Numbered from the stretch's first letter, positions 4,623 to 52,985 are shown. The stretch: 64,000 bases of DNA from Candidatus Latescibacterota bacterium (GCA_965222605.1 OZ244960.1:2368001-2432000); one strand, 5' to 3'. The notes: generated by a model from the sequence alone, not told the origin. Numbers and translations: made by a program.

Positions 4623-6020
4623 TCAGTACCGTGTTTCTACGTAAATTGCGGCCCGCCCAGGACAGGGATAGCCGGACTTGTCTTTGTGGGGGTTAAGCCG
4701 GGAGGTCATTTTCTTCCGAGGGAAGTGCTTGCCGCAATAAGCGCATTCATAGATGTAGCGTGGCCCGCTGGTCCGACTTACTCGTCTGCGTCTCGGTCGA
4801 GACGCGGCTGATCGGGTTGCAGTCGGCGGGATGATGGCTGGGCCCTGTGGTCTCAACTCCACTACATAGCGCGGGATGAAACTTTGCCCAGTTGTCTGCG
4901 CGCCCTGGATGCGATCAATGCGATAACTGCGGTGTCCACCATCGGAGGCCCTTATGGCGTGCAGAACGATATTGCCGTCATGGGTGCGCCGCAGAGAATA
5001 AGGCTCAATCCGCCGGACAGATCCCTGGTACTTCAGATCCACGCACAAATGGTTGGCAGCGGCAAAGCGGATGATCTCCAGGAATGACTGTGCGGCACCA
5101 GAGACCGGTAGGCGCAGTGTGCGTTCTCTGAGCACGGTTTCACCAGCGGCCATCTGGTATGTGGCCAGCACAGTGGGCGCCACGCCGGTTTCAAGCCAGG
5201 CAAAGAAATCGGGAAGTGCGCTCCAGAAAGATTCGACGGGCGGCAGAGCCTGAAGCTGGTGAGCCAGCATCGATTGCCAGGAACCTTCAAGATCGTCCCT
5301 GTGTATCTCCAGTTCAACAAGGGCCGGAACAGGAATACTGCGGTGAGCACATTTTTGCTTCAGGACATCGTGCAGGACAGTAGACTGCGGCCGTGCTTCG
5401 TTGTTGCGAAAAAGATTAATGACATCATAGAGATCGCGGGGCCGGGCACGCTCACCCAGGGCGCGGACCTTTTCAGCAAAGGCTTCTTCATAGGCGTAGC
5501 ACCTGATACTGATCCCCTCTGCCGGCACATCGCTGTAGTCGTGAAAGATGACAGGTTCCGCTGGCGGCAGGACAAGAAGCTCATCGAGTGTCAAATCAAG
5601 CTTGATGCGCGGTAGGCCGCCTGAGCGCGGAGCGATCGGTCCTCGGTAGCTGAGTTTGCCCTGGCAGGACACCGTGCCGCGTGGGTTTTCAAAGACCTCG
5701 AATTCCTGCATCTCTTCGGGGATCTCAATGCCGGTTTGCTCATAGATCCATTCGCCGATTTCGCGGAAGACCGCGACCAGGAATTCCTGATCAATGCGAG
5801 AGGGATCGGTAAGTGTAAAATCAAGGTCTTCGGAGAATCGGTAAGTTTCGAAATAGCATTTCTTAAGGCAGGTCCCACCCTTAAAAATCCAGTTTTCTGC
5901 AAGAGCAGCGTGCTGATAGATACCGGCGAGAACCCAGCCGAGCACATAGTCCTTTTCGACAACCTGGGGCAGCAAACCAAAGGTACTCGCGATATCGAGA
6001 ATTTCGCGGCGGTCAATCAT
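4623..6020 (-). CDS. abiEii: AbiEii-family nucleotidyltransferase toxin fused to a WYL domain and a C-terminal Zn-finger
   Basis: VEKDY, FKGGTCLKKCY, RFSEDLDF, AEKVRAL, RPRDLYD (AbiEii); Y..RRIEPYSL...RSYRIDRI (WYL); CAYC...H...C at the end. Confidence 0.88.
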   Translation of the reverse strand: MIDRREILDIASTFGLLPQVVEKDYVLGWVLAGIYQHAALAENWIFKGGTCLKKCYFETYRFSEDLDFTLTDPSRIDQEFLVAVFREIGEWIYEQTGIEIPEEMQEFEVFENPRGTVSCQGKLSYRGPIAPRSGGLPRIKLDLTLDELLVLPPAEPVIFHDYSDVPAEGISIRCYAYEEAFAEKVRALGERARPRDLYDVINLFRNNEARPQSTVLHDVLKQKCAHRSIPVPALVELEIHRDDLEGSWQSMLAHQLQALPPVESFWSALPDFFAWLETGVAPTVLATYQMAAGETVLRERTLRLPVSGAAQSFLEIIRFAAANHLCVDLKYQGSVRRIEPYSLRRTHDGNIVLHAIRASDGGHRSYRIDRIQGAQTTGQSFIPRYVVELRPQGPAIIPPTATRSAASRPRRRRVSRTSGPRYIYECAYCGKHFPRKKMTSRLNPHKDKSGYPCPGRAAIYVETRY

Positions 6021-6838
6021 GCGGACGCCGCCTTCGCCCAGTTCTCAGGCATAAGGAGACGCCATCGGGATATGAGACGGCGGCATGAAAGCCTCGGGTC
6101 AAGTTTGGCATTGCCCTGGGTCAGACGCGCGCGGCACGCCTCAACAAGGGTAGCAGTGCCGGGTCCGCGTTCTGCCAGAAAGCCCAGGCGCTTGAATACG
6201 GCACCGTTACCGAGCCGGTCTGCATAGGCAATCAGTTTGTCATCATCCCTGTCCTTGCGGTCAAAATAGACTGCAAGACAATCGGCAACATGCTGGATAC
6301 CGGCTCCAAGCTCCGGATCGTCGAGCATATCGATGATGGTGCGGTGAACATCCGATACAGCGATCTGGGTTCTTCCGCGCCAGACGGTCTTCGTGCCGAA
6401 AATCATACTCTGCCGGACATGCTTCAGGGTGAAGTGTGCGCCATGGCGGTGCTGGCTTTTAGTACGCACGGCCCGCGCTGTCATCACAACAATATCGCGA
6501 AAGATCTGCTCCGTCAGATCCCAGTGTTCGGCGGCAGTCCGGCCGCCGATGTAGGCCGGCTTAAAAAGCGCAGGCACCAGCACCCAGGGATCATCAAGAA
6601 CCTGCTCGCTGCCAAGGGAATCAAGGCCAACAGGTGCGTACACACCCGGACCGACACGCCGCAGCCAGCCCTGTCCCCTCCAACGGGAGAGAAGCTTGGC
6701 GGCGTCGGAACGACTAACGGAAAGGGCATGTTCAGCATCGGCGATATGAATGATATCACCAGCGGCCCGAATAACGGTGGTCAGCCTGAGGCGTCCCTTA
6801 GGTATGGCGGTCTCTGAGTTCATGGTATGTATAGTCAA
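6017..6838 (-). CDS. abiEi: AbiEi-family type IV TA antitoxin / wHTH regulator
   Basis: N-terminal wHTH (GWLRRVGPGVY); AYIGGRTAAEHWDLTEQ, SDVHRTIIDML, FKRLGFL; ATGA overlap with abiEii. Confidence 0.85.
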   Translation of the reverse strand: MTIHTMNSETAIPKGRLRLTTVIRAAGDIIHIADAEHALSVSRSDAAKLLSRWRGQGWLRRVGPGVYAPVGLDSLGSEQVLDDPWVLVPALFKPAYIGGRTAAEHWDLTEQIFRDIVVMTARAVRTKSQHRHGAHFTLKHVRQSMIFGTKTVWRGRTQIAVSDVHRTIIDMLDDPELGAGIQHVADCLAVYFDRKDRDDDKLIAYADRLGNGAVFKRLGFLAERGPGTATLVEACRARLTQGNAKLDPRLSCRRLISRWRLLMPENWAKAASA

Positions 6839-8125: not shown

Positions 8126-9645
8126 GTCGAAGGCCCTCCGGTGATGACCTCCGCGACGATCCGGCGCTGCACCTTGCCCGTTGCCGTCCGTGGGATGGTA
8201 TCTACTATGTGAATCCTGCGCGGGATCTTGAAGGAGGCCAGGCTCTGCCGGCAGTGGGCGATCAGCTCCTTCTCCGTCGCCTCGGAGCCGAGAACGATCG
8301 CCGCGGCGGGCTCCTCTCCGTGGGTAGGGTGCAGGACTCCGAACGACACGGCCTCCGATACGGCGGGGTGCGACAGCAGCACCTCGTCAATCTCGACCGG
8401 AGAAATCTTTTCGCCACTGCGGTTGATGAGTTCCTTGATCCGGCCCCGCAGCGTCAGCACCCCGTTCTCGTCAAGCTCGCCCTGGTCTCCGGTCCTGAAC
8501 CAGGTGCCGACGAACGAAGAAGCGTTCGCCTCGGGGTTGGACTCGTATCCCCGGATCACGTTGGGGCCACTGATCACCACCTCGCCAACCGTACCCGGCG
8601 TCTGAAACTCGCCCGCTTCGTCCATGATCCCGATCTTCACGCCGGTCCCCTGCCCGACCGAGCCGGGGATGCGATTGCCAGGAGGCAGGGGGTTCGACGC
8701 CATCTGGTGTGCGGCCTCCGTCATGCCATAGGCTTCAACCACCGGTACGCTGAAGATCGACTCCATCTGCTGCATTGTAGCCGGGGCGAGAGCCGCGCTG
8801 CACGAGCGGATAAAGCGCAGTCTATCCGCATTCCGGGACGCACGCCCACTCCGGGCCCTGGACAGCAGCGCCCGGAACATCGTCGGCACCGCGGAGAACC
8901 ACGTGACCTCGTACTCCTCGACGAGCGGCCAGAACCCCAGCGGGTTGAAGCGCGGCGGCACGACCACGGTCCCGCCCGAGTGGAGAGTCGAGAGCGTCGA
9001 TGCCATCAGCCCATGCACATGAAACAGCGGCATGATACAGAGCGATACGTCCCTGTCGGACAGGTCGTAGGTCTCGACGATGTTCTCGACGGATACGGTG
9101 AGGTTCCGGTGCGCCAGCGGCACGCGCTTGGGGCGGCTGGTCGTCCCGCTGGTGTGCAGCACGAGCGCCACGTCGTCAGGCTCTGGCAGAGCGGTTTCGC
9201 GACCCTCCGCTGCGGCTCCGGACCCCGTCAGACTGACGCGGCCCGATTCGTCGAGCGCGGCCCGGATGTCCATCACCGAGGCTGGGGCCGCGCTGCGGGC
9301 CTCCTCGCCTCCGTCGTCCGAGGTGATGAGCGCCGTGGCCTTGGTGTCGTCCATGTAGAACTCGAACTCTGCGGCCTTATAGGCGGGGTTCAACGGAGCT
9401 GCCGTGCCAGCCGCCGCGACCGCCAGAAATGTCACAATCGCTTCTATGCCGTTGGGCAGGACGATGGCTACCCTGTCTCCACGGTCTATGCCCCTGGCGC
9501 GGAGCTGCGCCGCGAGCGTCTGCACCTGACGCCGCAGCGAGTCATAATTCACAACAGGCCCACCAGGGGCCACTATAGCCGGGTGCGATGGCGCACCCGA
9601 TTCGAGCAGGTCAAGCAGTGTTTCTGGAGGGGTTTTGCCGGACAT
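8122..9645 (-). CDS. Acyl-CoA synthetase, oxalate--CoA ligase-like (AAE3/Pcs60/Oxs type)
   Basis: LHTSGTTSRPK, PLFHVHG, FIRSCSA, EAYGMTEAAHQMASNPLPP, PRTATGKVQRR. Confidence 0.85.
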   Translation of the reverse strand: MSGKTPPETLLDLLESGAPSHPAIVAPGGPVVNYDSLRRQVQTLAAQLRARGIDRGDRVAIVLPNGIEAIVTFLAVAAAGTAAPLNPAYKAAEFEFYMDDTKATALITSDDGGEEARSAAPASVMDIRAALDESGRVSLTGSGAAAEGRETALPEPDDVALVLHTSGTTSRPKRVPLAHRNLTVSVENIVETYDLSDRDVSLCIMPLFHVHGLMASTLSTLHSGGTVVVPPRFNPLGFWPLVEEYEVTWFSAVPTMFRALLSRARSGRASRNADRLRFIRSCSAALAPATMQQMESIFSVPVVEAYGMTEAAHQMASNPLPPGNRIPGSVGQGTGVKIGIMDEAGEFQTPGTVGEVVISGPNVIRGYESNPEANASSFVGTWFRTGDQGELDENGVLTLRGRIKELINRSGEKISPVEIDEVLLSHPAVSEAVSFGVLHPTHGEEPAAAIVLGSEATEKELIAHCRQSLASFKIPRRIHIVDTIPRTATGKVQRRIVAEVITGGPST

Positions 9646-23654: not shown

Positions 23655-25043
23655 TCAAATACTCGGCAAAGGCGCAGTATCACCCGTCTCGTGCTGCCAC
23701 AAACGAATCGCCGCCGCCATATTGCGGATGCGATCCCGGTGTTCGGGCGCATCGAACAAATTATTCTCCTCAAAAGGATCGGTATTCAAATCGAACAACT
23801 CGCACTGATCGCCCGCACACAAATTCAACTTCCACCGGTCGCCCGTCACAACACAACGCCACGGCAGCGTCGCCACCAAATTGATATCGGGATTCCCCAA
23901 ATTGCGGTCGCCAATCCCATTCCACTCCATAAACGCCATGTGTTCCCTCAAATCGCGGTCACCCGTCAAAGCACCTGCCACACTCTCACCCTGACACTGG
24001 TCTGGAATCGGCAACCCCGCCAGATCCAAAAGCGTCGGGATCAAATCCGCGTGACCGAACACCCCATCCACTCGCGTCTGCTCTGTGCTCAACCACGGCA
24101 CATGCATCAAAAACGGAATCCGCGCCGACTCCTCGTAAAACGCCCGCTTTTCCCACATGCGATGATCGCCCGCCATCTCACCGTGATCACTCGTAAACAC
24201 AAAAATCGTATTCTCCATCTGACCCGTCTCATCCAGAGCCTGCACCATCTTGCCAATGGCGTCATCCACAATTTTCACATTGCCCAAATACTGCGCCCGC
24301 AACTTCCGCCAATTCTCATCCCGCGTCATATCTTCGGCCACAACCCGCGCATCTGTGGTGTTGCGATAAAAATCTGAACGCACCCGGTTAAACAGCGAAT
24401 GCCCCTCTGGATGCTTCAAAAATGTCGGCCCCAACGCTATCTCTTCGGGATCGTACATCCCGTCATAAGGTCCCCGATAAGGCGGATGCGGCTCAAACGT
24501 ACTGGCAACGAGCAGCCATGGACCACCTGTATTCTCTCGAATAAACCGCTCTGACTCCTCGCCCACATAAGCCCCAATCTGCGCGGATGCCGGCATAGCC
24601 GCGCGTTGCTGGGGCGTAAATCTATTGGGCACATCCGGCGCAAAGCCCTGATCCAAAAGCCACTGGTGGTACCCACAGCCATCCGCAATACTGCACCACT
24701 CGTCAAATCCGTGCTGACAGTTGCCATCATCTCCCAAATGCCACTTGCCCACATACCCCTTGCGGTACGTATTGGGCATCATCTCCGCGATGGACAACGT
24801 CTCCTCTCTCAGCGGGATCCCATTGACCACACACCCATGCGAATGCGGATAAAGCCCGGTAATCAGCGACCCCCGCGACGGCGTACAAACCGCCTGCGTC
24901 ACATAAGCATTCTCAAAAACAAAACTGCGCTCGGCCAGCGCGTCATGATGCGGCGACTGAATCCACCCATTGCCATAACACGCCATCGTATCCGTGCGCT
25001 GCTGATCCGTAATCACAACTACAATATTCGGTTGACGGGACAC
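23655..25043 (-). CDS. Sulfatase (FGly-dependent)
   Basis: PNIVVVITDQQR, CTPSR, GKWHLG, TSDHG. Confidence 0.92.
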   Translation of the reverse strand: MSRQPNIVVVITDQQRTDTMACYGNGWIQSPHHDALAERSFVFENAYVTQAVCTPSRGSLITGLYPHSHGCVVNGIPLREETLSIAEMMPNTYRKGYVGKWHLGDDGNCQHGFDEWCSIADGCGYHQWLLDQGFAPDVPNRFTPQQRAAMPASAQIGAYVGEESERFIRENTGGPWLLVASTFEPHPPYRGPYDGMYDPEEIALGPTFLKHPEGHSLFNRVRSDFYRNTTDARVVAEDMTRDENWRKLRAQYLGNVKIVDDAIGKMVQALDETGQMENTIFVFTSDHGEMAGDHRMWEKRAFYEESARIPFLMHVPWLSTEQTRVDGVFGHADLIPTLLDLAGLPIPDQCQGESVAGALTGDRDLREHMAFMEWNGIGDRNLGNPDINLVATLPWRCVVTGDRWKLNLCAGDQCELFDLNTDPFEENNLFDAPEHRDRIRNMAAAIRLWQHETGDTAPLPSI

Positions 25044-25056
25044 TGCGATTCCTCCT

Positions 25057-25141
25057 TGTCTGAATCAGGATGGGCAGGATGAAAGGATGAACAGGATACC
25101 CCCCGCCACACCACACCAAAACTGCCAAACCCCATCCTGTT
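25057..25141. repeat. AGGAT-palindrome copy A (left arm, loop and start of right arm)
   Basis: TGTCTGAATCAGGATGGGCAGGATGAAAGGATGAACAGGAT...TGCCAAACCCCATCCTGTT. Confidence 0.85.
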
Positions 25142-25526
25142 AGTTTCGATCCGGGTGCTTTTTGTCATTGAATATCCGTTTGTACTCCAGCCTTTTTGCC
25201 CCGAAGTTGATTAAAAGGCCAATATCAAAATCATAAGCCACTACATAGTTCTTCGCTTGCGCCAGGTGAACATCCTCCAGAATAGTTAAGGCTTTTAACT
25301 CAACAACGACGCAATTGGCTACGATAAAATCTGCTCTTCTCGTTCCGACTTCAATGCCCTGATAAAAAATGGGTTGCTCCACCTCCCGTCCAAAATCAAT
25401 GCCTGCCTGTTCTAACTCAATCGCAAGACACCTCTGATAAATCACTTCCTGAAATCCATTTCCAAGCGTACTGTGTACTTTCATCGCGCAACCAATGATT
25501 TTATACGTCAAATCATCACTTTTCAC
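25140..25526 (-). CDS. GxxExxY protein (PD-(D/E)xK nuclease fold)
   Basis: LGNGFQEVIYQ, RADFIV...VELK, GLLINFG. Confidence 0.93.
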   Translation of the reverse strand: MKSDDLTYKIIGCAMKVHSTLGNGFQEVIYQRCLAIELEQAGIDFGREVEQPIFYQGIEVGTRRADFIVANCVVVELKALTILEDVHLAQAKNYVVAYDFDIGLLINFGAKRLEYKRIFNDKKHPDRN

Positions 25527-25543
25527 TCTGGCTATCCTCTTAT

Positions 25544-25627
25544 TGTCTGAATCAGGATATACAGGATTTTAGGATGGGCAGGATGCTCCTTGCCATATCC
25601 CGCCAAGCGTGCCAAACCCCATCCTGA
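25544..25627. repeat. AGGAT-palindrome copy B (direct repeat of copy A)
   Basis: TGTCTGAATCAGGATATACAGGATTTTAGGATGGGCAGGAT...TGCCAAACCCCATCCTGA. Confidence 0.85.
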
Positions 25628-25640
25628 TGTTGTGCCCATC

Positions 25641-25677
25641 GAAAAAAAGACCTCGCAAAAATCAGGCGAGATCTTTC
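25641..25677 (-). terminator. Intrinsic terminator of the three-gene cassette
   Basis: Minus strand AAAGATCTCGC-CTGATTTTT-GCGAGGTCTTTTTTT. Confidence 0.7.
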
Positions 25678-25708
25678 GGTAAGGCAATTCAAGCAAAATA
25701 ATCAATGA

Positions 25709-26098
25709 TTATTGTTCTTCATCCTGCTGAACCAAAACCGTATGGCTTGCTATATATTCATCATTTATGAAAACTTCAAACTTGAGTTCTCCGGGTTTTG
25801 CAATCTGCAGATTCACGAATTCCTGAAAAAGACGATGCCGATTCGACTCAATCTTGATATTTGTCGAAAAATTTTTCGGCTTTTCTTTGCCAGGTAAAGA
25901 TACGTGAACTTTCACTTGATAATCTATATCCTCATCTCCGCTTTCATAATTCCAAGCACTTATTACAACTGCTTGGGGTATAACTGCCGGAAATTGATCT
26001 GATCGAAATTCACTTAAAATATTGAACAGACTTAACCTATTTGTCCGCTGATCAACTGAAATACTTTCACTCACGAGGAAATATTCTAACTTTGGCAT
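25709..26098 (-). CDS. DUF6941-like all-beta protein
   Basis: SISVDQRTNRLSLFNI N-terminus and KPGELKFEVFIND C-terminus, recognised as the DUF6941 pattern. Confidence 0.6.
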   Translation of the reverse strand: MPKLEYFLVSESISVDQRTNRLSLFNILSEFRSDQFPAVIPQAVVISAWNYESGDEDIDYQVKVHVSLPGKEKPKNFSTNIKIESNRHRLFQEFVNLQIAKPGELKFEVFINDEYIASHTVLVQQDEEQ

Positions 26099-26581
26099 TT
26101 ACGCAGCCTCGACCGTGTGATAGTTTATAGTTCTTTCTCGTGCTTTAAAAGTATCCCCATAGACATTGAACGCTTCTACAGAGGAAACAGAAAATGTGCG
26201 ATAGATATTATTAGTGCTTTGCTGGCGTCTTTGTACACAAAATTTCGCTACTCGGATACTCAAAGGCATCTCCGATAGCTCCAGGTTAGCCAGCGTGGTG
26301 AGATACTCTTCAGCAAAAGGCGTGTTAAAAGGCTCCAGAGCAATTGCTACCAACGATAATGTTATATCATAGGAAAATTTTTCACCAGACACAAATTTTT
26401 CCAGTAAACTCTGTATATATCTGTGCAATTCTGCCTCGGATAAATTCCCACTCCAATATGCATCTCGAAGTTGCTTGCACTCTTCGGTCCGTACAAGAAT
26501 ATATCGCATCGCTTTGGGTGGCATTTCATAGCCAATAGAAAAAATGAAGTCATCAGACTTTATTTTTTGTAGCAAATTCAT
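26099..26581 (-). CDS. Hypothetical alpha-helical protein
   Basis: GAGGAG RBS before ATG 26581; stop directly abuts the next start (TAA-ATG); AT-rich. Confidence 0.7.
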   Translation of the reverse strand: MNLLQKIKSDDFIFSIGYEMPPKAMRYILVRTEECKQLRDAYWSGNLSEAELHRYIQSLLEKFVSGEKFSYDITLSLVAIALEPFNTPFAEEYLTTLANLELSEMPLSIRVAKFCVQRRQQSTNNIYRTFSVSSVEAFNVYGDTFKARERTINYHTVEAA

Positions 26582-26592
26582 TGGAATACTCC

Positions 26593-27120
26593 TCAAAGGG
26601 TTCGGTCTGTCCAATACCTCAGTTGAAAATCAGTGAAATGATCTCGAAAGGGCACGTCCCCTGGGAAATGGATATACTCTCCAGATGCATCATCCCATTT
26701 GCTTAGTATTCTAGGGATCGGTCTTCCTGTTGGTAAAATACCCGGTTCGAGAGATAAAACCTGACCTACATGAATGTATCCGACTTCACTATGTGAATAA
26801 ATGGCAAGATCCCCAGGCATCGGCGATTCACTGCCATTTAATTCACGGTACTCATCATCTTGGTAAATTTTATCCCACTCAGGGTCATCGTAAATAGCTG
26901 TTCTCCGACTGGCCCAAACAAGGCCAGCACAATTATATATACCACAAGGTCCAATACGTTTTATCCACTTGGCTCTAAATTTATTTAACCATACCTGTTC
27001 ACGGGCTAATGATTGTTGTGCTGGAGGAGGGGCAACTTCATTCTTGATATGTTGTCCTGCCCGAGTATCGAGACGGAGACTCTGCCTATTTTGACCAATT
27101 AATCTCTGCACATCAAACAT
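26593..27120 (-). CDS. Putative papain/NlpC-P60-like cysteine peptidase
   Basis: YNCAGLVW (Cys) ... PGDLAIY ... IHVGQV (His) ... SKW. Confidence 0.6.
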   Translation of the reverse strand: MFDVQRLIGQNRQSLRLDTRAGQHIKNEVAPPPAQQSLAREQVWLNKFRAKWIKRIGPCGIYNCAGLVWASRRTAIYDDPEWDKIYQDDEYRELNGSESPMPGDLAIYSHSEVGYIHVGQVLSLEPGILPTGRPIPRILSKWDDASGEYIHFPGDVPFRDHFTDFQLRYWTDRTL

Positions 27121-27297
27121 AATATCATTGTATTATATGATTTTCAAAATCTCTCACATGATCTTAAGAAGAGAGGACCCAATTTAAAACTCCATTATTC
27201 AAGATACCGTCACAGGGAATAGATATCAAGGGGAAATTCTCCAATATCTGTTATCTAGCTATTCCTGGTGCGAGTCTATTTTCACATTAGCACTCGC

Positions 27298-27426
27298 CAT
27301 CCTGTTCATTCTTCATACTCGGTAAACTGGCTTGGGGAACAGCCAGTTGTACACCACCGCTCCGATGTACTGTATGGGTATGGCTACACCATGCTGCGCG
27401 TGCGCCTACCCATCCTGATCCAGACA
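27298..27426. repeat. AGGAT-palindrome copy C (right arm) interrupted by other REP-like hairpins
   Basis: CATCCTGTTCATTCTT ... CCCATCCTGATCCAGACA; internal GTAAACTGGCT-N8-AGCCAGTTGTAC. Confidence 0.75.
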
Positions 27427-27434
27427 GTTTCCAC

Positions 27435-30400
27435 TTAAATGTCCAAAAAACCGTGGTACCCAGCACTCAAAAGGGTTTCTTGCGCACGCTCCGCATTCTT
27501 GTACACGCTTTCATCCTCGCTGTTCAGACCTGCCTTCAGAATGGGCTTGGCTTTGTCTGCGTCAATGTAAATTCTGCCACTCTGATCAATCGAATCAGTA
27601 ATTTTTGCGAAGCATTCAACGACTTTCGCAGTATGGCTTTCGAGCATTTCGTTCAGCATGTCCAACCCGAAAAAAATACTCCGGCTATCCGGCTGGCTTA
27701 CATCAAGAATTTTAGAGTAAGCATCTAATCGCCAATCAGGGTCAAGACATTCCGCTTCCAGCCAAAATGTGAACAATTGCAGTTCTTCTGGTTCCTTAAC
27801 TTCAAATCGCCAGTCAAAAAAAGCGACTATGCGATCTCTCAAGTCTTCCCCCAGATGCTTTCCGCTATTTTTCAGAGAACTCCCGACATGATCGAATAAG
27901 CGTGTCCACCGTTGCTTGTCATCTGTGGTTTTCTCGTAAAATCTTTCCAGCAGACTATCTTCGCTCTTGAGTGGATAAACTTCCCACAAATAATAGGAAA
28001 AAAGATGTTCTCCCAGCGTATCGGGAATTTCCCTAATTGAGTGCTTTCTCCCTTTCAGGTCGGCCAAATGGTCAAGTGCAAGTGCAAAATCCTCTCTCAA
28101 AATTTCAAAGGTTGGCTTAAATGGACCATTGAAGCGCAAGAAACTTCCAAATGCCTCTACCCATACGGATAGATTATCTTGAGGGAAAAAGACCGCTTTG
28201 TGTTCAACTGCCCATGTTTGATTCAGGTCCCAAAGTTGAACGTAATACATGCCTAATATCGCACGTTCCGGCATTGTCAGAGGGTAATACGCTTCAGCCT
28301 TAAAACGCGCTTCAAGTATTGAGGTAACTTCTGGCACCTTATCCTTATCATCGTGCCTCCGTACCCATAAACTGAACTTCACAAGGTCTTGCAAAGCGCG
28401 GCTGCGAGTGTTATTGATCGCCTCGGTAATTTGATCGTTATGGCTCAGTAAGGTCGGCTCATTGAGATCTAATTGCCTGTCAAATTGTGTGCATAACAGT
28501 CTAAGGATATTTGCCAGTAATTCCCTTGCAGTGAATGGAACATTCATATCCTCTTTGAGACACTCACCAATGAAATCTCCCACTGCTCGCCGGGAACTTC
28601 CCCAGTCTGGCTGTTCCCGTGACTCATCGCCCCTTTCTCCTTGATCCCTTTTTATGTCGGGATGCGATAGCACCCACTCGCAGAATTCAAACCATAGATC
28701 AAGCCGCTCATAATGTTGCTCTTTTACATGCTCCTGAACTGCCAAGACAATTGCCTTAACATAAATTGGCCGCTTGATCCGATCACGGTTTTTCAGCCAG
28801 AATGTCAATCGTTTCTCATTAGGAATGATCGTATCTTTGAACGCCGTTTGAAAGGTCAAGGCAAGTGCTCTGATATTAATTGATTCATTTTGTTCAAAGT
28901 CATAGCGTGCCTCTTGCCATTCATTGATATAGTGGAGTAATTCTTCATCCGGAAAGTTTGTAAGGTCTTCTACTGATCTCGGGCTACTATAGGACACAAT
29001 TCCGCCTTTTGACTTCCCAATTGGTGAATAGTCTTCATCGGAAAGAGGCTTTTCGCCGGAAGTGTTTTCCAGTTCTCGGAAATAGTTTTGATATTCTCCA
29101 GTCTGCAAGTGTTCAAATGGTCGGAGTTGCATTCTGTGAAAATAACGTTGTCGTTGCTGGAATCCCTCCTCAGTGAACCGCTCTCCCATCCATTCTCGGA
29201 AATCTTCTCTCGAGGGTCCGCTCAGAATGGCGTCAAATATCGTCGTTCGTTCTCTCTTGCTAAGCAGGCTTGCGCCAAAGTGCTCGCAAGCCTTGCGAAT
29301 CATGAGTTGAAACTCGTAATCATGTTCCCATTTGGCATAGTCTTTGTGTTCGAGGATGAACTCGTGAATCCATGGCCTAGTCTGTTCGTTTGGATACAGC
29401 GCGTATAGATGTTGGCGAAGACGTTTAAATATTTTCCAGTGCTGATTGCGTAGAGCGTTGTCCAAGATTGCGATTGACTCCGGTGCCTTTTTGAATATCT
29501 CCTCGCAGGCAAAAGTCAAGGTATGAACAAGCGTTTCTTCGGACTCGCTGTAGTCACTATCATCTAATTCATTGAGACGCCAGCACCAGATTTCGGAGTA
29601 ATCTTCATCTCCTTCTTTATCGAGGTCTTCTCGATGCTTGCTCAGACGAATCATGCTTGCCGTGGCATTAATAAGCATGCGAGCTATTTGATATGGCTCT
29701 TGATCGCATAGAGGACGTATGCCATTTTCGAGAATCTGCTGGTATTCCCATTGATCAAAAAGAGGCGATGGTTTAAGCTCTGTTGTCCAATCCTTTGGGT
29801 TCTCCAATCGACGTGCTTGCTTTTCCCCAGACATAGGATCAGCTCTGAACGAAACAGCGATTTTAGAAAGTTCCAAAGCCGCCTTTATTGAATCTTTTGA
29901 TCCTCCTATCCAATGGTTTACAATCTTAGCAATCAAATCATACAGGCTAATCTGTTTATGAGGCGATTTGATGTATCTTGTGAACCGGGGCTTGAGTTTC
30001 AGTGATAGCTCAATGTTCTCTATATCACACGCTATCTCACAGATTTCTTGCAAAACACGAGGATTGTCCGTTTCTGGAATATCAGCAAGAATGTCCACGA
30101 CCTGCTCTGGGACATTGTTCGCGACTCGTTTCAGATATGAAAGAGGCGACCAGAATGGATAGATCACGTACCCATCATCGGTAGGCTTAACGTTTGGTGG
30201 TGTATTAAAGAAGCCCTGATCTTTCAGTATTGGAATCCACACTGGGTTTTCTACGTATTCGAAGAAGAACCTGTAATTTGCTCCTCTGCGCGTTATTAAT
30301 TCCAACATAGAATTTATGTCGTCTTCAGTGGGTGCGGGCTTCTCAAGTATGGTCCTGATTTCTTGTTGATTCTGCGCTGTGATGGGAGCAAGCAGGTCGA

Positions 30401-30998
30401 AAATTATTTGATCTATGGTAGAAAAATACTCCATGAAGCTTTGCTCATCCGGATTGCTTCTGTGATGGGCAAAGCCTTCGATTTCCATCCAGACTTTATG
30501 AAATTGGTCACGCTTTGCTTCTTGAATCCTCGGATCGAACATGTCTGCCATCGGATCAATTTGCCCGATTGCTGATTGAATCTGTTCTCTGCGTGTTGGT
30601 CTCTGGTTCAATTCCAGGTACTGGTCAATCTTTCGAAGCGTTTTATCAAGTTGTCCATCAACCTCTTTATCCTTCCATTTTCCATCATATCGTGTCTTGT
30701 CCTTTATCCAGCGATTATATATGCCTCGTCGCATCCCCACTAAATCATGCGATCTTACCACATCGCTTTCACGGACTACTCTTGGAAGTTTTTCAAGAAG
30801 TTCCCTCAAAGACTGAGCAGCTTGCGAGATTCGGTCAGGATTGTATGTATTTTGGAGTGCGAAAAGGGCACCTAAATACCAGTCACCCAAGGGATATTCA
30901 TCTGTTTCTTTCGCCCTGAGCGCATCCAAAACCTGCCTCTGCGTTGCATCAAGAATCGGCGACATCGGTTGATTATTATCTGGGAAGTTTTCATTCAT
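27435..30998 (-). CDS. Large (1187 aa) protein: N-terminal HEPN-like domain plus a long alpha-helical region; putative anti-phage protein
   Basis: NPDRISQAAQSLRELLEKLP...EGFAHH; YRFFFEYVENPVWIPILKDQGFFNTPP motif seen in large defence proteins; AGAGGTG RBS upstream of ATG 30998. Confidence 0.6.
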   Translation of the reverse strand: MNENFPDNNQPMSPILDATQRQVLDALRAKETDEYPLGDWYLGALFALQNTYNPDRISQAAQSLRELLEKLPRVVRESDVVRSHDLVGMRRGIYNRWIKDKTRYDGKWKDKEVDGQLDKTLRKIDQYLELNQRPTRREQIQSAIGQIDPMADMFDPRIQEAKRDQFHKVWMEIEGFAHHRSNPDEQSFMEYFSTIDQIIFDLLAPITAQNQQEIRTILEKPAPTEDDINSMLELITRRGANYRFFFEYVENPVWIPILKDQGFFNTPPNVKPTDDGYVIYPFWSPLSYLKRVANNVPEQVVDILADIPETDNPRVLQEICEIACDIENIELSLKLKPRFTRYIKSPHKQISLYDLIAKIVNHWIGGSKDSIKAALELSKIAVSFRADPMSGEKQARRLENPKDWTTELKPSPLFDQWEYQQILENGIRPLCDQEPYQIARMLINATASMIRLSKHREDLDKEGDEDYSEIWCWRLNELDDSDYSESEETLVHTLTFACEEIFKKAPESIAILDNALRNQHWKIFKRLRQHLYALYPNEQTRPWIHEFILEHKDYAKWEHDYEFQLMIRKACEHFGASLLSKRERTTIFDAILSGPSREDFREWMGERFTEEGFQQRQRYFHRMQLRPFEHLQTGEYQNYFRELENTSGEKPLSDEDYSPIGKSKGGIVSYSSPRSVEDLTNFPDEELLHYINEWQEARYDFEQNESINIRALALTFQTAFKDTIIPNEKRLTFWLKNRDRIKRPIYVKAIVLAVQEHVKEQHYERLDLWFEFCEWVLSHPDIKRDQGERGDESREQPDWGSSRRAVGDFIGECLKEDMNVPFTARELLANILRLLCTQFDRQLDLNEPTLLSHNDQITEAINNTRSRALQDLVKFSLWVRRHDDKDKVPEVTSILEARFKAEAYYPLTMPERAILGMYYVQLWDLNQTWAVEHKAVFFPQDNLSVWVEAFGSFLRFNGPFKPTFEILREDFALALDHLADLKGRKHSIREIPDTLGEHLFSYYLWEVYPLKSEDSLLERFYEKTTDDKQRWTRLFDHVGSSLKNSGKHLGEDLRDRIVAFFDWRFEVKEPEELQLFTFWLEAECLDPDWRLDAYSKILDVSQPDSRSIFFGLDMLNEMLESHTAKVVECFAKITDSIDQSGRIYIDADKAKPILKAGLNSEDESVYKNAERAQETLLSAGYHGFLDI

Positions 30999-31035
30999 TG
31001 GGATATAAACACCTCTTTTGAAGGTTATTTCAACT

Positions 31036-31065
31036 AAAAAGAGGACTTGACCACAAGTCCTCTTT
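31036..31065 (-). terminator. Intrinsic terminator just upstream of the 1187-aa gene
   Basis: Perfect 12-bp IR AAAGAGGACTTG-TGGT-CAAGTCCTCTTT followed by TT on the minus strand. Confidence 0.7.
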
Positions 31066-31140
31066 GAAGGATTTCGCTCGGTTGTACCATCTTGCTCTAC
31101 GCAGATCCGAACGGGTCTGCGGTCGCAGTTCAACAGGTAT
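31036..31140 (-). ncRNA. Candidate ~105-nt structured small RNA or leader
   Basis: Upstream TTGACA and TATAAT hexamers; CGCAGACCCG-TT-CGGATCTGCG stem; ends in the terminator. Confidence 0.3.
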
Positions 31141-31206
31141 TAATTATAAATAACGAACAAATATACCATTGTCAAGGGCAGAGAATTTCTTCATCAAAAA
31201 ATAGAC

Positions 31207-31268
31207 TGGATCACGGCTCAACATCATGCCGCGATGACAGACGGGACGGCACGGGGACCGTCCCCTAC
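31207..31268. repeat. Composite repeat: GGATC..GCCGCGATGAC hairpin plus GTAG-type REP
   Basis: TGGATCACGGCTCAACATCATGCCGCGATGAC; minus strand GTAGGGGACGGTCCCCGTGCCGTCCC. Confidence 0.75.
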
Positions 31269-31282
31269 AACACCATCTCGAT

Positions 31283-31372
31283 CATCCCGCCAAATCTTCA
31301 TCCTGTTCATCCTTCGATATTCGCTACGCTCATTGTAGGCTTCGCCTGTGCCTGCCCATCCTGATTCTGACA
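31283..31372. repeat. AGGAT-palindrome copy D (loop end and right arm with insert)
   Basis: CATCCCGCCAAA..CATCCTGTTCATCCTT ... CCTGCCCATCCTGATTCTGACA. Confidence 0.8.
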
Positions 31373-31388
31373 GTTTTTTCACATCCCA

Positions 31389-32894
31389 TCATCTGAGAAG
31401 CATGAAGGTTGACAGGGGCATGCTAACAATTCGGGGATCGTCAACTTCTTCAGAATTGTCCTGTGTGATCAGCAGGCCAAAAGCGGCGTTGTTCACTGAT
31501 TTTTCGAGAAATGACCGAATGCCCAGCGTATCCCGTAAGGGATCTATCCTGCGTTGATATTTGATTTCTATCGGCACGCGTTGAGCGCCGACGGTCAAAA
31601 CAAAATCCACTTCACGGTCTGTTCCTCGTTCGGGGAAATGGGCGATGTCCAATCCGTGAATCGTCGAGGCAGTTGCGCCGAAAATACTCTCTGCGAGATG
31701 CCCGGCTATTGTGGTGAGTTCAGGACGCTCTGTCAGAGCTTCCGACGTCAATGGAATCTGCTCTTGAAGCCAACTGGCTCGCAAGCCGTGATCAACCAGA
31801 CAAAGTTTGGAACTCCCTCTCTTTCTTTTGAGCCGTAATTCAAGCGGAGGAATCAATCGAAGCAGAAGTGTCTCACCGAGAAATCTCAAATAGTGCGTCA
31901 CGCGCTGGCTGCCGATATTTGCGCCAAGCGATAGGCGCGCCTCGTCCGCAAGCATTGAAACCGTCGGCGTCTGCCCAGCGTAGCGACAAGTCAGGCGAAA
32001 AAGTTCTTCAAGCAATTGAGGATCTCTCTTTCGTCCGCGATCACCAACCCGAAGATCGTGTTGGATCACGCGCTTAATCACGGTCTCGTTCAACTGATCT
32101 GCAAGCACAGCCCATTCGACATCCTTCTGTTTGTGGACGATGGGATAGCCGCCGCGCTCTGAAAAATGCCGAAACGCCTCATTCCGAAATCCCGTGTTAT
32201 CCTCACCATGAGCACGCAGTTCCCGCCAGAAATTCTTGTCAATCAGAAAACGCAGGCCGTTATCCTGCAGGAATGGCTTCGGCGTTTCCAACTCGCGCAA
32301 CGCGCCGATTTCAGTGAGTGAAAGCACCCCCGCTTCAATGGTGTTAATGCGTCCTGCCAGACTATCACGGCCCCTTTCAATCCTCAGTGCAGAACTTCCA
32401 GTAACGACAACTTTTACTGAAGCATGATCTACGAGAAACTTGAGTTGTGCATGCCAGCCATCCAGATTCTGAATTTCGTCAAAAAAGAGATATGCCTTCT
32501 GCCCATCTCGCGCTAACGCATTGAAACGCGCCTCTGTTATCTTTCGTTCAAACCAGCGGGAAATGGCGAGAATCGGATCCTCTATCCTTTGCAACGATGC
32601 CAATTCCTCAAACTGCACGCGAAGGATGCTTGTGGGGGGCACGCCTTCGTCGAGCAAATCCGCAATGATTTGAAACTGTGCCGTCGTCTTTCCTACCTGG
32701 CGCGGGCCTCGCACCACGATGATAGGAGCTATCTCTGCATCCAGACGGCGACGTATCTGCGCGACCAGATGTCGGCGCGTCCGCGGTTGTGGCGGCATGA
32801 GATCGCCCTCCCACCACGGGTTCAGATCACGCAAGTCAGCGACCAATTGCGGCGCGAGCCAGCTATCGGCAAAAAGCGAATCCTGACTGCTCAT
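31389..32894 (-). CDS. AAA_14 ATPase with C-terminal DUF4143/PD-(D/E)xK-like domain
   Basis: NPWW, GPRQVGKTT, FFDEIQ, VTGSS, SLAGR, GGYP, EVDFV..PIEIKY. Confidence 0.87.
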   Translation of the reverse strand: MSSQDSLFADSWLAPQLVADLRDLNPWWEGDLMPPQPRTRRHLVAQIRRRLDAEIAPIIVVRGPRQVGKTTAQFQIIADLLDEGVPPTSILRVQFEELASLQRIEDPILAISRWFERKITEARFNALARDGQKAYLFFDEIQNLDGWHAQLKFLVDHASVKVVVTGSSALRIERGRDSLAGRINTIEAGVLSLTEIGALRELETPKPFLQDNGLRFLIDKNFWRELRAHGEDNTGFRNEAFRHFSERGGYPIVHKQKDVEWAVLADQLNETVIKRVIQHDLRVGDRGRKRDPQLLEELFRLTCRYAGQTPTVSMLADEARLSLGANIGSQRVTHYLRFLGETLLLRLIPPLELRLKRKRGSSKLCLVDHGLRASWLQEQIPLTSEALTERPELTTIAGHLAESIFGATASTIHGLDIAHFPERGTDREVDFVLTVGAQRVPIEIKYQRRIDPLRDTLGIRSFLEKSVNNAAFGLLITQDNSEEVDDPRIVSMPLSTFMLLR

Positions 32895-32982
32895 GACCAA
32901 TCCTTTCTCCAAAGTCTTGCATTGCGACAACGCGAAATTCCGGTTAGCTCCACATCCCTATAATATACAGCATCAGTGCCAA

Positions 32983-33068
32983 ATTCTGACAATTTCCACC
33001 ACATCCCGCCAAACCTGCCAAGCCCCCATCCTGTTCATCCTCCGATCCTGTCTATCCTGATTCAGACA
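32983..33068. repeat. AGGAT-palindrome copy E (loop and complete right arm)
   Basis: CCACATCCCGCCAAACCTGCCAAGCCCCC-ATCCTGTTCATCCTCCGATCCTGTCTATCCTGATTCAGACA; 36/41 inverted match to the copy A arm. Confidence 0.85.
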
Positions 33069-33989
33069 GTTGCCTCTCAAAGTGTCTCCCCTGCTTCGCT
33101 GCTTGCCATTGGTCTTCTGTATCGATCTCAGCGCCGGGATCGCCCTGTTGTTTCATCCAGCAATCGAGCTCGGCAGACAGGCGTTCTTTCGCCTCTGCGT
33201 GTGCGGGATCATCAGCCAGATTGGTCAACTCGCAGGGATCCTCGTCCATGCGATACAACTGTTCGGCGGGACGATGCATGTACCGATCCACCAAAAACCG
33301 CGTATGTTCATTAAACGTCGTATCAAAAACCCACGTTGGCCAGTACTGGTGCCATCTAAACTGCCCCATCAGATGCTTCTCAATATAGATCGCCTCGGGC
33401 GTGAGATTGCGAATATAGTGATACGTGCCATCCGTCACCGCGCGGATCGGATAGGGCGGACCCTCGGGAATATTATTATGCATAAAATACGCGAACTCCC
33501 GATGCTCATCTGCCTCGTCCAAAAGAACGGACATAAAACTCGACCCATCAAAATCAATCGCACCTATATCACCGCCCGCAGCTTCAATCAGCGTAGGCGC
33601 GACATCTTCATACTGAATAACCGCATCGGTATATCCCGGTCTCACCTTGCCGGGCCAGCGCACGACAAAACCCGTATGAACACCCGTATTCCAATTCGTC
33701 CACTTGCACCCGGGAAACTGCGACCCCTGTTCAGACGTAAAAATCACCAGCGTATTATCCGCCTGCCCGCTCTCATCCAGCACGACCCATTGCGCGCCGG
33801 ATACAACCCCGTATAAAGTGCCGTACGGCACGGATTGCACATCGCCATTGGCAAATACGCCCGATTAAAAACCAGACCATCACTTGCCAATCGATCAATA
33901 TTCGGCGTCTGCACATTCTGTCCGCCGTACAGCGACAAATCGAGATACGTCGCATCATCTGCAATCATAATCAAAATATTCGGCTCCAT
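33052..33989 (-). pseudogene. Sulfatase (heparan N-sulfatase-like) pseudogene with an internal deletion and frameshift
   Basis: N-part PNILIMIADD...CNPCRTALYTGLYPARNGSCW joins the C-part VLDESGQADNTLVIFTSEQG out of frame at GTGCTGGA (33776-33783). Confidence 0.85.
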
Positions 33990-44336: not shown

Positions 44337-44520
44337 GTGACTACTCCCAACGCTAACGCTCTCTGCGAGTGGGCTTCTTGGCAGTCAAGCCGCCTGACGT
44401 TGTAGCCCCAACGTCAAAATGTTTATGGCAGCATTGAGGTCTCTGTCTGCTGTATAGCCACACTTTTTGCAATGATGCACACGCTGGGAGAGTTTTTTCT
44501 TTTCTCTATGTCCACATGCC
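44321..44520 (-). ncRNA. Predicted TnpB omegaRNA (reRNA): scaffold overlapping the tnpB 3' end and right end, guide from the flank; 5' boundary approximate
   Basis: Established TnpB architecture; right-end hairpin ending in TCAC at 44337. Confidence 0.6.
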
Positions 44521-45509
44521 GAGCAATCTTGTGACGTGTATTCAGGCTTGACGGCCTTGAATCCAATACCAGCCTCTTCCGCTTTGTATTCGAGACAGTG
44601 CCGAAACAGGGACCATGCTGCGTCTGCTATTGATTTAGACAATCGCCTGTTCTTTTGCATTTTCTGGACTTTCAATTTTTCGACGGCTATGAAGCCGTAG
44701 CGATTGACCATTTTTCTTGATTCTTGATGGGCAAAGTTATGCCGCTTATTACGGATACGCTCATGCACTCTGGCAATTATTTTACGACGCTTTTCTTTTA
44801 CAACGTCAGTCTTGGGTCTTTTTTTCACTGCGTCCCATTTGCGCTGTGCTTTGGCAAGCGTCTTTTCCTCTTTGCGAAAAAATCGCTGGTTGGCTATTGC
44901 CTGTCCTTCACTGGTTACAGCAAAGGAATTGAGACCCACGTCAATGCCAACAGCAGAGTTAGTATCGGTTTTCTTACTTATGTCGCCAATATCACAAGGG
45001 ATAGATGCAAACCATTTACCCGTCGCCGTGCGAGTGATAGTGCAAGACTTAGGAATACCTTCAAGTGGTCTGTGCTGGACAACGCGAATACAGCCTATTT
45101 TGCTCAATCGCAAGCCCTTGCCGTCCAATCGGCAACCATTGGAAAACTGAGGATAGGTGATAGAATCATAGCGATTCTGTCCCTTATATCTGGGAAAGCC
45201 AGCTTTCTCGCCAGTCTTTGCCCTCTCTTTGACGCGACGAAAGAAACCTTTGAACGCCAAATCCACTCTTGCTGATACTTGTTGCAATACCTGACTATAT
45301 ACTTGCGTAAATTCAGCATGTTGTTGCTTCAGCAATGGTATCGTATTCGTCTGGTCATACTGGGACAAAGACTTATTCTCGTTTTTCCATGCTTGCTTTC
45401 TGGCGCAGAGGAGTTGATTGTAGAGAATGCGACATTCGTTAATATGCGCCAGCAAGATTCTTTCTTGCTTTTTCGTTGGTCGCAATCTATATTTGAATGA
45501 TTTAACCAT
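44385..45509 (-). CDS. tnpB: RNA-guided endonuclease TnpB
   Basis: FKYRLRPT HTH; GIDVG (RuvC-I D), VEKL (RuvC-II E), TSQDCSACG..CKKCG Zn ribbon, DRDLNAAINI (RuvC-III D). Confidence 0.95.
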   Translation of the reverse strand: MVKSFKYRLRPTKKQERILLAHINECRILYNQLLCARKQAWKNENKSLSQYDQTNTIPLLKQQHAEFTQVYSQVLQQVSARVDLAFKGFFRRVKERAKTGEKAGFPRYKGQNRYDSITYPQFSNGCRLDGKGLRLSKIGCIRVVQHRPLEGIPKSCTITRTATGKWFASIPCDIGDISKKTDTNSAVGIDVGLNSFAVTSEGQAIANQRFFRKEEKTLAKAQRKWDAVKKRPKTDVVKEKRRKIIARVHERIRNKRHNFAHQESRKMVNRYGFIAVEKLKVQKMQKNRRLSKSIADAAWSLFRHCLEYKAEEAGIGFKAVKPEYTSQDCSACGHREKKKLSQRVHHCKKCGYTADRDLNAAINILTLGLQRQAA

Positions 45510-52674: not shown

Positions 52675-52937
52675 TTATCAGCTTCTTCTTCAATGGCCTT
52701 TGCCCAGGCGTTTTCCTTTATCTTATGCCAATCCTTATCATCAAATGCGTTGTCTTCATTCACATACTCAGCAAGACTACCCTTTAAGGATTTGTTATGC
52801 TCCGGCGGAAAGAATTGAATTTCTATGCGATTATCCACCAAGCGCTGTAACGCAATCCACCCGGGTTCTATACCCAGTTGATCACGAAGTTCCTTTCTTA
52901 TTACAACCTCGCCCTTGCCCCCAACTTTATAAGTCAA
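52665..52937 (-). CDS. AbrB/MazE/SpoVT-family antitoxin
   Basis: KVGGKGEVVIRKELRDQLGIEPG. Confidence 0.85.
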   Translation of the reverse strand: MTYKVGGKGEVVIRKELRDQLGIEPGWIALQRLVDNRIEIQFFPPEHNKSLKGSLAEYVNEDNAFDDKDWHKIKENAWAKAIEEEADKWK

Positions 52938-52985
52938 AGCGATCCTCCTCTCTGATCGTGAGCTATTTATGTAAATTCTCCATAT

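Follow-up and report, generated by a model that had tools for sequence, protein, structure and literature searches.

A variable defence hotspot between two sulfatase genes of a Candidatus Latescibacterota bacterium and the mobile AGGAT repeat that probably acts there as recombination substrate

The island and its repeat pieces

The DNA analyzed in this study, called the window in the following, is a stretch of 64,000 nucleotides (G000:C1:2368001-2432000) from the closed 6.34-Mb genome of a Candidatus Latescibacterota bacterium, the source genome G000. It contains an island of six genes in 8 kb, located between two sulfatase genes and marked at its borders and inner joints by pieces of an AGGAT-rich repeat consisting of an arm, a loop and the inverted arm. 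We analyzed the island in the source genome and its congeners, the repeat in this genome and in other phyla, and the link between the repeat and the gain of genes. The features of the locus are as follows (window positions):

23655..25043, - strand: sulfatase gene 1, the left conserved anchor (Pfam Sulfatase, E 1e-51; ~92% identical in congeners); by reading, the Shine-Dalgarno sequence of this gene, AGGAGG, adjoins arm A at its outer end
25057..25139, + strand: repeat unit A, with the 41-nt arm (25057-25097), the C-rich loop and, from the opposite arm, its first 6 nt (ATCCTG)
25140..25526, - strand: small nuclease gene of the GxxExxY/PDDEXK_3 type, between units A and B (Pfam PF13366, E 2e-38; NCBIfam TIGR04256, E 2.5e-40)
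25544..25626, + strand: repeat unit B, with arm, loop and ATCCTG, a direct repeat of unit A
25709..27120, - strand: three-gene module for a DUF6941 protein, a 171-aa protein without assignment and a weakly CHAP-like 175-aa protein (Pfam)
27298..27426, - strand: repeat piece C, a split arm of opposite sense, its outer end separated by 8 bp from the stop codon of the gene for the 1232-aa protein
27435..31133, - strand: gene of a 1232-aa Dsr1-like defence protein (PADLOC Dsr1, E 3e-23)
31283..31372, - strand: repeat piece D, with a partial loop (CATCCCGCCAAA) and a split arm
31389..32930, - strand: ATPase with AAA_14 and DUF4143 (PADLOC candidate system PDC-S01)
32978..33068, - strand: repeat piece E, with a remnant arm end (TTCTGACAATTTCCAC), the full loop and a full arm
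33052..33989, - strand: sulfatase gene 2, the right conserved anchor (Pfam fragments)

With up to 2 mismatches, the 15-mer TGTCTGAATCAGGAT matches in the window at 25057 (+), 25544 (+), 27412-27426 (-), 31358-31372 (-) and 33054-33068 (-). Only 0.16 matches were expected, and none of 100 shuffles reached five. Repeat pieces are present at all five positions (25057, 25544, 27298, 31283 and ~32983) where an earlier sequence-only reading of the window had placed them. The repeat finder also agreed with that reading on the inversion of the outermost arms, 25057-25097 and 33028-33068, which are 41 nt long and complementary at 36 of 41 positions (88%). Units A (25056-25139) and B (25543-25626) were returned as direct repeats of 84 nt that are 77% alike, at a distance of 487 bp. 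The remaining structure was read from the sequence directly. The C-rich loop recurs in A, B and E and partly in D, and the loop split by a gene, with GACAGTTTCCAC on one side and CATCCCGCCAAA on the other versus the uninterrupted GACAATTTCCACCACATCCCGCCAAA at ~32983, is as had been described. Units A and B share their end point, the loop followed by ATCCTG. The arm is interrupted by other repeat material in piece C (~90 bp) and in piece D (~35 bp). Across the island, the half-palindromes follow each other in the order + + - - -, and the three-gene module is bracketed by a 7-bp direct repeat, CATCCTG, with one copy at the end of unit B and the other where piece C starts.

Regarding the cargo, the searches returned the nuclease, the ATPase and both flanking sulfatases that the sequence-only reading had named. 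The 175-aa protein gave a weak CHAP-like match, which with E 4e-4 lies below the Pfam cut-off, and a HEPN domain was returned by none of the domain and defence searches of the island proteins.

Other accessory genes of the window lie among PhyH and sulfatase genes at 3497-6838 and 52228-55147 and comprise an IS3-type rve gene, an AbiEii/AbiEi pair, PIN and Fic/DOC genes; a TnpB gene is located at 44388-45509. The scan of the window with the 15-mer found no AGGAT arm beside any of them.

The hotspot in congeners and its empty alleles

In most congeners, the 3.5-kb flanks on either side of the island are 90-95% identical, and in the most distant ones the identity is 75-85%. Of 20 congeners, 15 have both anchors in collinear order on a single contig; left out of the hotspot count were G011, G012 and G013 (anchors on separate contigs or one not found) as well as G010 and G018 (rearranged). 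Three of the 15 assessable congeners are empty and 12 are filled with 565 bp to 20.3 kb of differing genes, so that the empty sites and different cassettes for which the sequence-only reading had looked to relatives aligned by the sulfatase anchors are both found. The distances between the anchors are:

G006, G009, G007: 3-7 bp
G016: 565 bp
G001: 900 bp
G005: 2.1 kb
G003: 5.9 kb
G015: 7.5 kb
G000: 8.0 kb
G017: 8.2 kb
G004: 8.8 kb
G014: 12.7 kb
G020, G002, G008, G019: 19-20 kb

An ATPase next to the right flank is common to most filled alleles. The ATPase module of G000 is shared with G020, G017, G002, G014 and G008, carries an internal deletion in G019, G004 and G003, and is accompanied in congeners by piece D; piece E is swapped for 23-24 bp in G014, G019, G004 and G002. 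The gene for the 171-aa protein recurs in G019, G020 and G015, and the Dsr1-like gene is 76-82% identical wherever it was found in congeners. Among the 103 open reading frames (ORFs) scanned in the islands of relatives, the cargo comprises type I restriction-modification, SIR2, TIR/SEFIR, PIN_12, AHJR-like, RusA, YhcG, GNAT, HigB/HigA-like and HicA genes. Several of these islands also contain insertion sequences (IS3, IS4/5, IS256, IS1595, TnpB). The co-orientation of the cassettes noted in the sequence-only reading applies to G000, where every island ORF is on the - strand; on the opposite strand are the toxin-antitoxin genes of G003, G004 and G005 and the HTH_37 gene of G020. With its conserved flanks, its empty and variably filled alleles and its defence-dominated cargo, the locus is a defence island at a hotspot.

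Two genes of the locus have a different form in G000 than in congeners. Sulfatase gene 2 is broken into two ORF pieces, one of 81 aa and one of 262 aa. In congeners with both parts, the segments 1-715 and 708-3077 of the right-anchor query lie ~400 bp apart, which reveals an internal deletion of ~400 bp in G000, with an 8-bp overlap, that is absent from the congeners. The Dsr1-like protein of 1232 aa is encoded by a single ORF in G000 and by two adjoining genes in G020, G002, G004, G019 and G017, namely a PIN_12 or pP_pnuc-like gene (~355 aa) and a gene for ~835 aa. The difference amounts to an N-terminal fusion or to an effector-domain swap at that end.

The empty alleles G006, G009 and G007 contain no palindrome by reading, and the view that the ancestral empty site was a single palindrome is supported by none of the three. 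There, the upstream sulfatase ends with CAT TTT GAG ATT TAG, the TAG overlaps the AGGAGG of the downstream gene, and the GTG start follows 7 nt on. The empty state is a tight operon joint and not a resident palindrome. In G000, arm A opens the inserted DNA, its TGT end lying flush with AGGAGG, and arm E closes it, its ACA end lying 6 bp short of the old junction; the upstream sulfatase ORF (sulfatase gene 2) extends into arm E and stops at a TAG within it (33052-33054). Since the arm ends are the ends of the inserted DNA, the arms either arrived together with it or were inserted first. Closest to the 'ancestral' state of the sequence-only reading is G001, in which a truncated GxxExxY/PDDEXK_3 gene lies beside an intact palindrome of ~215 bp. 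All four insertion sites that could be resolved to the base, here and elsewhere, are joints between a stop codon and the ribosome binding site of co-directional genes. This may reflect targeting or survival.

The AGGAT repeat family and its cassettes

The arm is built as TGTCWGAATCAGGAT-N3-CAGGAT-N3-AGGAT-N3-CAGGAT and is followed by a variable loop and the inverted arm. In the G000 genome, we found 12 matches of the arm-end 15-mer with up to 1 mismatch (control 0) and 20 periodic AGGAT arrays (control 0), one of which differs in kind, being a long CAGGATCAG run. The pattern GAATCAGGAT-N3-CAGGAT-N3-AGGAT-N3-CAGGAT, with up to 2 mismatches, is present with 3-66 copies each in 18 of the 20 congeners, G010 and G018 being those without arms. 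Counting G000, 25 of 41 related genomes have it, and the reversed-pattern control gave 0. Whole copies measure 226 bp (G000 306821-307046) and ~215 bp (G001). Arms are combined in mosaics with the C-rich loop, a CTGGATCGCGGC...GCCGCGATGAC hairpin and a repetitive extragenic palindromic (REP) sequence of the GTAG type. The latter palindrome (GTAGGGGACGGTCCCCGTGCCGTCCC) and the hairpin recur beside arms, for example at 31240-31270 of the window and at 9380-9420 of locus L027. The AGGAT pieces are a mosaic family resembling MITEs (miniature transposable elements with inverted repeats) and bacterial interspersed mosaic elements (BIMEs), with ~20 copies in G000, and not a private site of the island.

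Beyond the related genomes, an exact-match scan in which each species was represented by one genome gave at least 128 stretches, of which 80 were listed. Among the matches listed are Nostocales (Dolichospermum, Anabaena, Sphaerospermopsis, Cuspidothrix, Trichormus), Bacteroidota (Pontibacter, Saprospiraceae, Chitinophagales, Mucilaginibacter), Poribacteria, Latescibacterota, Chloroflexota (Dehalococcoidia, Caldilineaceae), Desulfobacterota and Beggiatoa-like Gammaproteobacteria. Five of these genomes hold 217, 272, 141, 35 and 25 arms. Across phyla, the TTGTCWGAATC end and the AGGAT cores are constant, with variation in the three 3-nt spacers and no relation between the loops. Paired arms share spacer letters at 0.49 versus 0.50 for random arm pairs (n = 13 Nostocales palindromes, not all independent), so that the conserved feature is the periodic cores and not a perfect hairpin.

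This bears on a role at the RNA level, in which the transcribed hairpin would insulate or stabilise mRNA at operon joints, or AGGAU motifs would bind an RNA-binding protein. Such a role agrees with the copies at stop/ribosome-binding-site junctions in operons, with upstream ORFs that often stop at the TGA in TGTCTGAATC (a same-strand stop codon lies within 15 bp of 16 of 104 arms) and with the good folding of the G001 palindrome (z -3.96). We nevertheless regard it as very improbable. Arms occur in both orientations relative to transcription, many copies are single arms, paired arms lack spacer co-variation, and the 226-bp copy of G000 folds no better than shuffles (z -1.6). A scan of Rfam gave no family that fits; it returned a single terminator-like match below the threshold and, for one Thioploca copy, generic models of long-hairpin microRNAs. 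It is just as hard to credit that the position at cassette borders would reflect selection restoring expression after insertions; an RNA role leaves the presence/absence polymorphism described below unexplained.

Further repeats were observed near or beside the family. Tandem arm arrays with constant spacers occur in Nostocales (L064, L076 and L071; Dolichospermum and Sphaerospermopsis) with periods of ~80 and ~100 bp, and tandem arrays with periods of 62-63, ~150 and 260 bp in a Dehalococcoidia genome (G044); they look like satellites rather than CRISPR arrays. The second GxxExxY gene of G000 (G000:C1:4452861-4453208) has no AGGAT arm and is bracketed by a CACGAAGG-type periodic repeat, with direct copies on both sides and one inverted copy. 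Periodic repeats of the ACGCAGAT type adjoin AGGAT arms at G000 5688730 and at the Dolichospermum locus L071. Several sister repeat families of the same build may exist. Cumulative GC skew places the origin of G000 near 3.0 Mb and the terminus near 0; by a hand count, 14 copies have the G-rich sense arm on the lagging strand versus 5 with it on the leading strand, a weak bias that is confounded with gene direction. In the literature, we found no paper naming an AGGAT-arm element, literal sequence matches being unrelated primers; searches on GxxExxY returned none dealing with repeats, and those on small dispersed repeats in cyanobacteria nothing relevant. For MITEs, a paper on Anabaena sp. 90 and a review came up, neither with a sequence that could be matched.

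Outside the island, arms occupy short gaps between mostly co-directional genes, and several of these copies are polymorphic. At parE/parC, a D12 methylase gene together with an arm is absent in 9 of 20 congeners and accompanied by further inserts in others; the outer end of the arm is the end of the inserted DNA. At wzx/DUF234-ATPase, the outgroup G010 has 12 bp and no arm, and G000 a mosaic of ~140 bp with an arm. At this arm point, G004 has 2.7 kb extra (AAA_21, DUF3226 and a 115-aa ORF), G002 1 kb extra (ORFs of 114 aa and 80 aa) with arm sequence on both sides, G017 ~0.8 kb and G007 ~0.4 kb. A second arm nearby (start 3080) is the left breakpoint (query 3081) of an AAA_15 cassette that is absent in G004, G002 and G011. 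Within the hotspot itself, a half-element of 166 bp lies between PIN_12 and YhcG in G020; it is not present in G002, G004 and G019. At aroK/aroB, a palindrome of ~104 bp is present in G000 and G004 and absent in G019, G007 and G015, where the genes are coupled as TGAcaATG (3 of 5 empty). Between an IMP-cyclohydrolase-like and a luciferase-like gene, an 87-bp unit is absent in G019 and G015 (2 of 5), in which TAA overlaps the ribosome binding site. The arm at LptG/sulfatase aligns straight through all five of five genomes. In G014, a different insert of 528 bp with small ORFs lies at aroK/aroB (G014:C1:5277748-5278276, L175), and its ends are faintly arm-like (GTTCATCCCTGTTTATC).

Arms also bracket cassettes. 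The unit-PDDEXK_3-unit arrangement, 84-bp direct repeats around one gene, is present in G000, G019 and G020, and unit-HTH_37-unit direct repeats are present in G020 and not in G019. In other phyla, inverted arms surround a GxxExxY gene (L060, Mucilaginibacter contig), a ParE-like gene pair (L067) and an HTH gene (L078), and direct arms surround two small ORFs (L083). A survey of the neighbours in other phyla covered 139 ORFs within 400 bp of arms at 80 loci. About 33 of them encode small nucleases, toxin-antitoxin or defence-type proteins, among them PDDEXK_3 (6), Uma2 (5), PIN (3), HicA, DUF433/DUF5615, RelB-like, DUF29, TumE, HNH_5, Barstar, YhgA-like and Cas_APE2256 proteins and methylases. 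In the related genomes G029 and G031, which have only 1 or 2 arms, these lie within 300 bp of a GxxExxY gene. Full arms are strongly enriched in several islands. The island of G000 holds 3 of 19 (0.024 expected), that of G020 9 of 66 (0.20 expected), that of G002 5 of 40 and that of G017 3 of 16, figures that are not independent because the islands share ancestry. Defence-type neighbours of arms elsewhere in G000 are Eco57I-like/TIR-TPR, AAA_15/AAA_21, the DUF234 ATPase, AbiJ and PIN/Phd.

We interpret the locus as a defence hotspot in which a mobile, cross-phylum repeat of MITE/BIME-like kind probably serves as a recombination substrate. The island would be the version, in one lineage, of a hypervariable defence island lodged in the formerly zero-length joint of two co-transcribed sulfatase genes. 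Repeat units would enter with, or beside, small accessory cassettes, and several copies in one locus would act as portable recombination substrates. Recombination between units, by host homologous recombination or a factor in trans, would yield unit-cassette-unit arrays, deletions and swaps, and the hotspot would thereby accrete defence genes without an integron. Observed are the hotspot, the polymorphic repeat family, its enrichment in the island and its bracketing of cassettes; that the repeats are a cause of the cassette gain is what we infer.

Several findings weigh against this interpretation and bear on a view of the arms as passive passengers, a REP- or MITE-like selfish or neutral scatter that piles up in islands since insertions are harmless there and intergenic joints more numerous. 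Arms occur between core genes, without cargo at aroK/aroB, LptG/sulfatase and IMP-cyclohydrolase-like/luciferase-like, and also within parE..parC. The sequence-only reading had counted a scatter regardless of core or accessory neighbours against its own proposal, and this is partly the case, since arms adjoin both core and defence-type genes. The islands of G015, G004 and G014 have no full arm despite related gene sets, so that cargo turnover is possible without arms. In G005 and G003, the HTH_37 cassette is found without units. The aroK/aroB copy is accompanied by no more than an imperfect duplication of 15 bp, and no target-site duplication was found at the 166-bp indel of G020 or, as a separate matter, at the island borders. 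Breakpoints at repeats are moreover expected wherever repeats are the only non-coding DNA. A tree of 570 bp of the flanks is a polytomy in which the empty alleles form no clade, and neither the older state nor the direction of gain or loss can be assigned from it.

That polytomy and the flank identity of 90-95% across species are as recombination would give, and several islands contain insertion sequences; cargo could change via recombination of the sulfatase flanks and via insertion sequences, an account of the turnover to which we give little credence. In metagenome contigs of sponge type (runs X19, X21, X23 and X1), the depth over the repeat pieces (window 25421-25727 and 30947-31560) is 10-30x that of neighbouring genes, as expected of a common repeat; it fits one shared by many co-resident genomes, with Poribacteria, Dehalococcoidia and Caldilineaceae also among the carriers. 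Against mere passengers speak the more than 40-fold enrichment in several islands, the position of arms at the extreme ends of the inserted DNA in two independent hotspots, the arm copies that flank inserts, and the over-representation of accessory genes beside arms in unrelated phyla. The few arms of G029 and G031, all close to PDDEXK_3, argue that arms travel with cassettes. We therefore consider that the arms are unlikely to be passengers only.

The search for a moving enzyme and known systems

If cassettes are moved along the repeats by an enzyme, its gene is not evident near them. As stated in the sequence-only reading, no integrase is encoded in the window: none of its 54 ORFs (13 + 41) gave an integrase-type Pfam match, the only rve domain belonging to the IS3-type gene at 3497-4225. 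Among the 139 arm-adjacent ORFs of the 80 loci, neither a DDE transposase nor an integrase was found, and the arm neighbourhoods of G000 contain no transposase except one degenerate Mutator-type gene more than 4 kb away.

Three candidates were rejected. PDDEXK_3 (GxxExxY) was not found in the arm-bearing G006, G007, G008, G013 and G017 and is present in the arm-less G010 and G018; other genomes have 0-4 copies versus 25-272 arms, and the second copy of G000 is armless. Uma2 counts do not track arms either, since the arm-less G010 and G018 hold 16 and 13 copies, among the highest numbers. For a REP-associated tyrosine transposase (RAYT/Y1), three Y1_Tnp matches exist in G000, and the strongest (354399-354758), the one read, is flanked by other hairpins. 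CsrA-type AGGA binding, anti-Shine-Dalgarno mimicry, DnaA boxes, Xer/dif sites and Tn7-like ends do not appear to fit the spacing or orientation data.

Circle junctions were looked for in Logan assembled contigs of public runs. Joints from arm to arm (25056>25543, 25101>33027 and others) are ambiguous because of the 10-30x depth of the arms. A contig joint going back 478 is a unit B variant aligned to unit A, and two joints in run X1 match congener alleles, one without piece E and one with the internal ATPase deletion.

These results limit the case for a dedicated cassette system, in which the arm-loop unit would be an attC-like site for a specific recombinase or nuclease encoded elsewhere, and circular one-unit cassettes would insert at a resident unit. 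Such a system would explain the direct repeats in unit-cassette-unit order at three places (PDDEXK_3 in G000, HTH_37 in G020 and the 1-kb insert in G002), the like ends of units A and B, the 7-bp repeats around the three-gene module and the location of all four resolved insertion sites. Also, cores that stay constant across phyla between variable spacers would look like protein-binding sites. The ORFs beside arms and in the window, however, include no integrase or transposase, the candidate enzymes PDDEXK_3 and Uma2 do not follow the arm counts, breakpoints in the repeat are uneven (after ATCCTG, before CATCCCGCC or inside arms), cassettes lie in both orientations, and no circle junction was seen in the assembled contigs. 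We consider a dedicated system doubtful. It is similarly a tentative idea that the AGGAT-arm unit could be the cis-acting site of an undescribed multi-phylum system of cassette mobility. That a trans-acting protein might then read the periodic CAGGAT cores and direct the element to stop/ribosome-binding-site junctions of operons is no more than a speculative extension, and there is a small chance that GxxExxY nucleases, toxin-antitoxin pairs, methylases and defence ATPases would be its moved cargo. The integron-like capture proposed by the sequence-only reading is only partly supported, by the variable hotspot, the cassettes flanked by units (PDDEXK_3 in G000, HTH_37 in G020) and the intact palindrome of G001; in place of a local site, there is a family spread over phyla.

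How defence islands gain genes at hotspots that have no mobility gene is an open question. The AGGAT repeat marks the borders and joints of this island, other small hotspots of G000 and accessory cassettes in distant phyla. If the repeat is indeed a substrate of cassette gain, as we favour, it provides a sequence handle for finding such hotspots in genomes. If it were a cis-acting site, defence islands could grow in an integron-like manner without an adjacent integrase or transposase; if it were only a passenger, it would still be an unusually widespread repeat family without a known enzyme.

Among known systems, integron arrays and clusters of attC sites lacking integron-integrases (CALINs) are alike in their row of small cassettes between imperfect palindromes (co-oriented in G000, with some genes on the other strand in congeners), in cargo rich in toxin-antitoxin and defence genes and in arrays without a nearby integrase. 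The core boxes of attC sites are RYYYAAC/GTTRRRY, whereas the arm ends read TGTCWGAATC / GATTCWGACA. Also unlike these arrays, the window has no intI, the island units are half-palindromes in + + - - - order instead of one whole site per cassette, and the AGGAT repeat also occurs alone between core genes. BIME/REP and enterobacterial repetitive intergenic consensus (ERIC) sequences are mosaics of short modules, located in operons near the 3′ ends of genes and variable between strains, and a REP family is usually confined to one species or genus. The AGGAT repeat resembles BIME/REP as an extragenic mosaic of short modules within operons, near gene 3′ ends and of variable presence, and differs in its spread over phyla, in arms that begin with TGTC, without a GTAG/CGTC head, and in the other hairpins that flank the strongest Y1 gene.

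Mobile insertion cassettes (MICs) consist of inverted repeats around passenger genes without a transposase and are moved by an insertion sequence sharing their ends. Inverted arms around cargo are found here as well, from A to E around six genes and 8 kb and at L060, L067 and L078, but no element with the same ends is present (0 of 139 neighbouring ORFs). Core defence hotspots have conserved flanks, empty and filled alleles and changing sets of anti-phage systems, all of which apply to this locus; unlike in these, a specific repeat lies at the borders and inner joints, and insertion took place at a stop/ribosome-binding-site overlap within an operon.

Of the features of MITEs, the AGGAT repeat has terminal inverted repeats on a short non-coding element and presence/absence polymorphism, and it lacks a regular target-site duplication and a parent insertion sequence with the same ends. 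For Anabaena sp. 90, 147 MITEs of 77-541 bp have been described, including a 'type II' without a matching insertion sequence (PMC3542288). As far as that description goes, the type II elements are alike in their terminal inverted repeats, their size of 80-540 bp, their mostly intergenic location in dozens to hundreds of copies, the lack of an insertion sequence with the same ends and their variable presence among relatives (PMC3542288). The paper text and one supplementary file of this source contain neither CAGGAT nor ATCCTG. Compared with the elements described there, the AGGAT arms have identical cores over several phyla and often lie on both sides of genes, and no regular target duplication accompanies them. 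By description, the 147 'type II' MITEs may belong to the same family as the AGGAT arms. Compared with MITEs, MICs and defence hotspots alike, the conservation of the cores across phyla and the insertions at operon joints are unusual.

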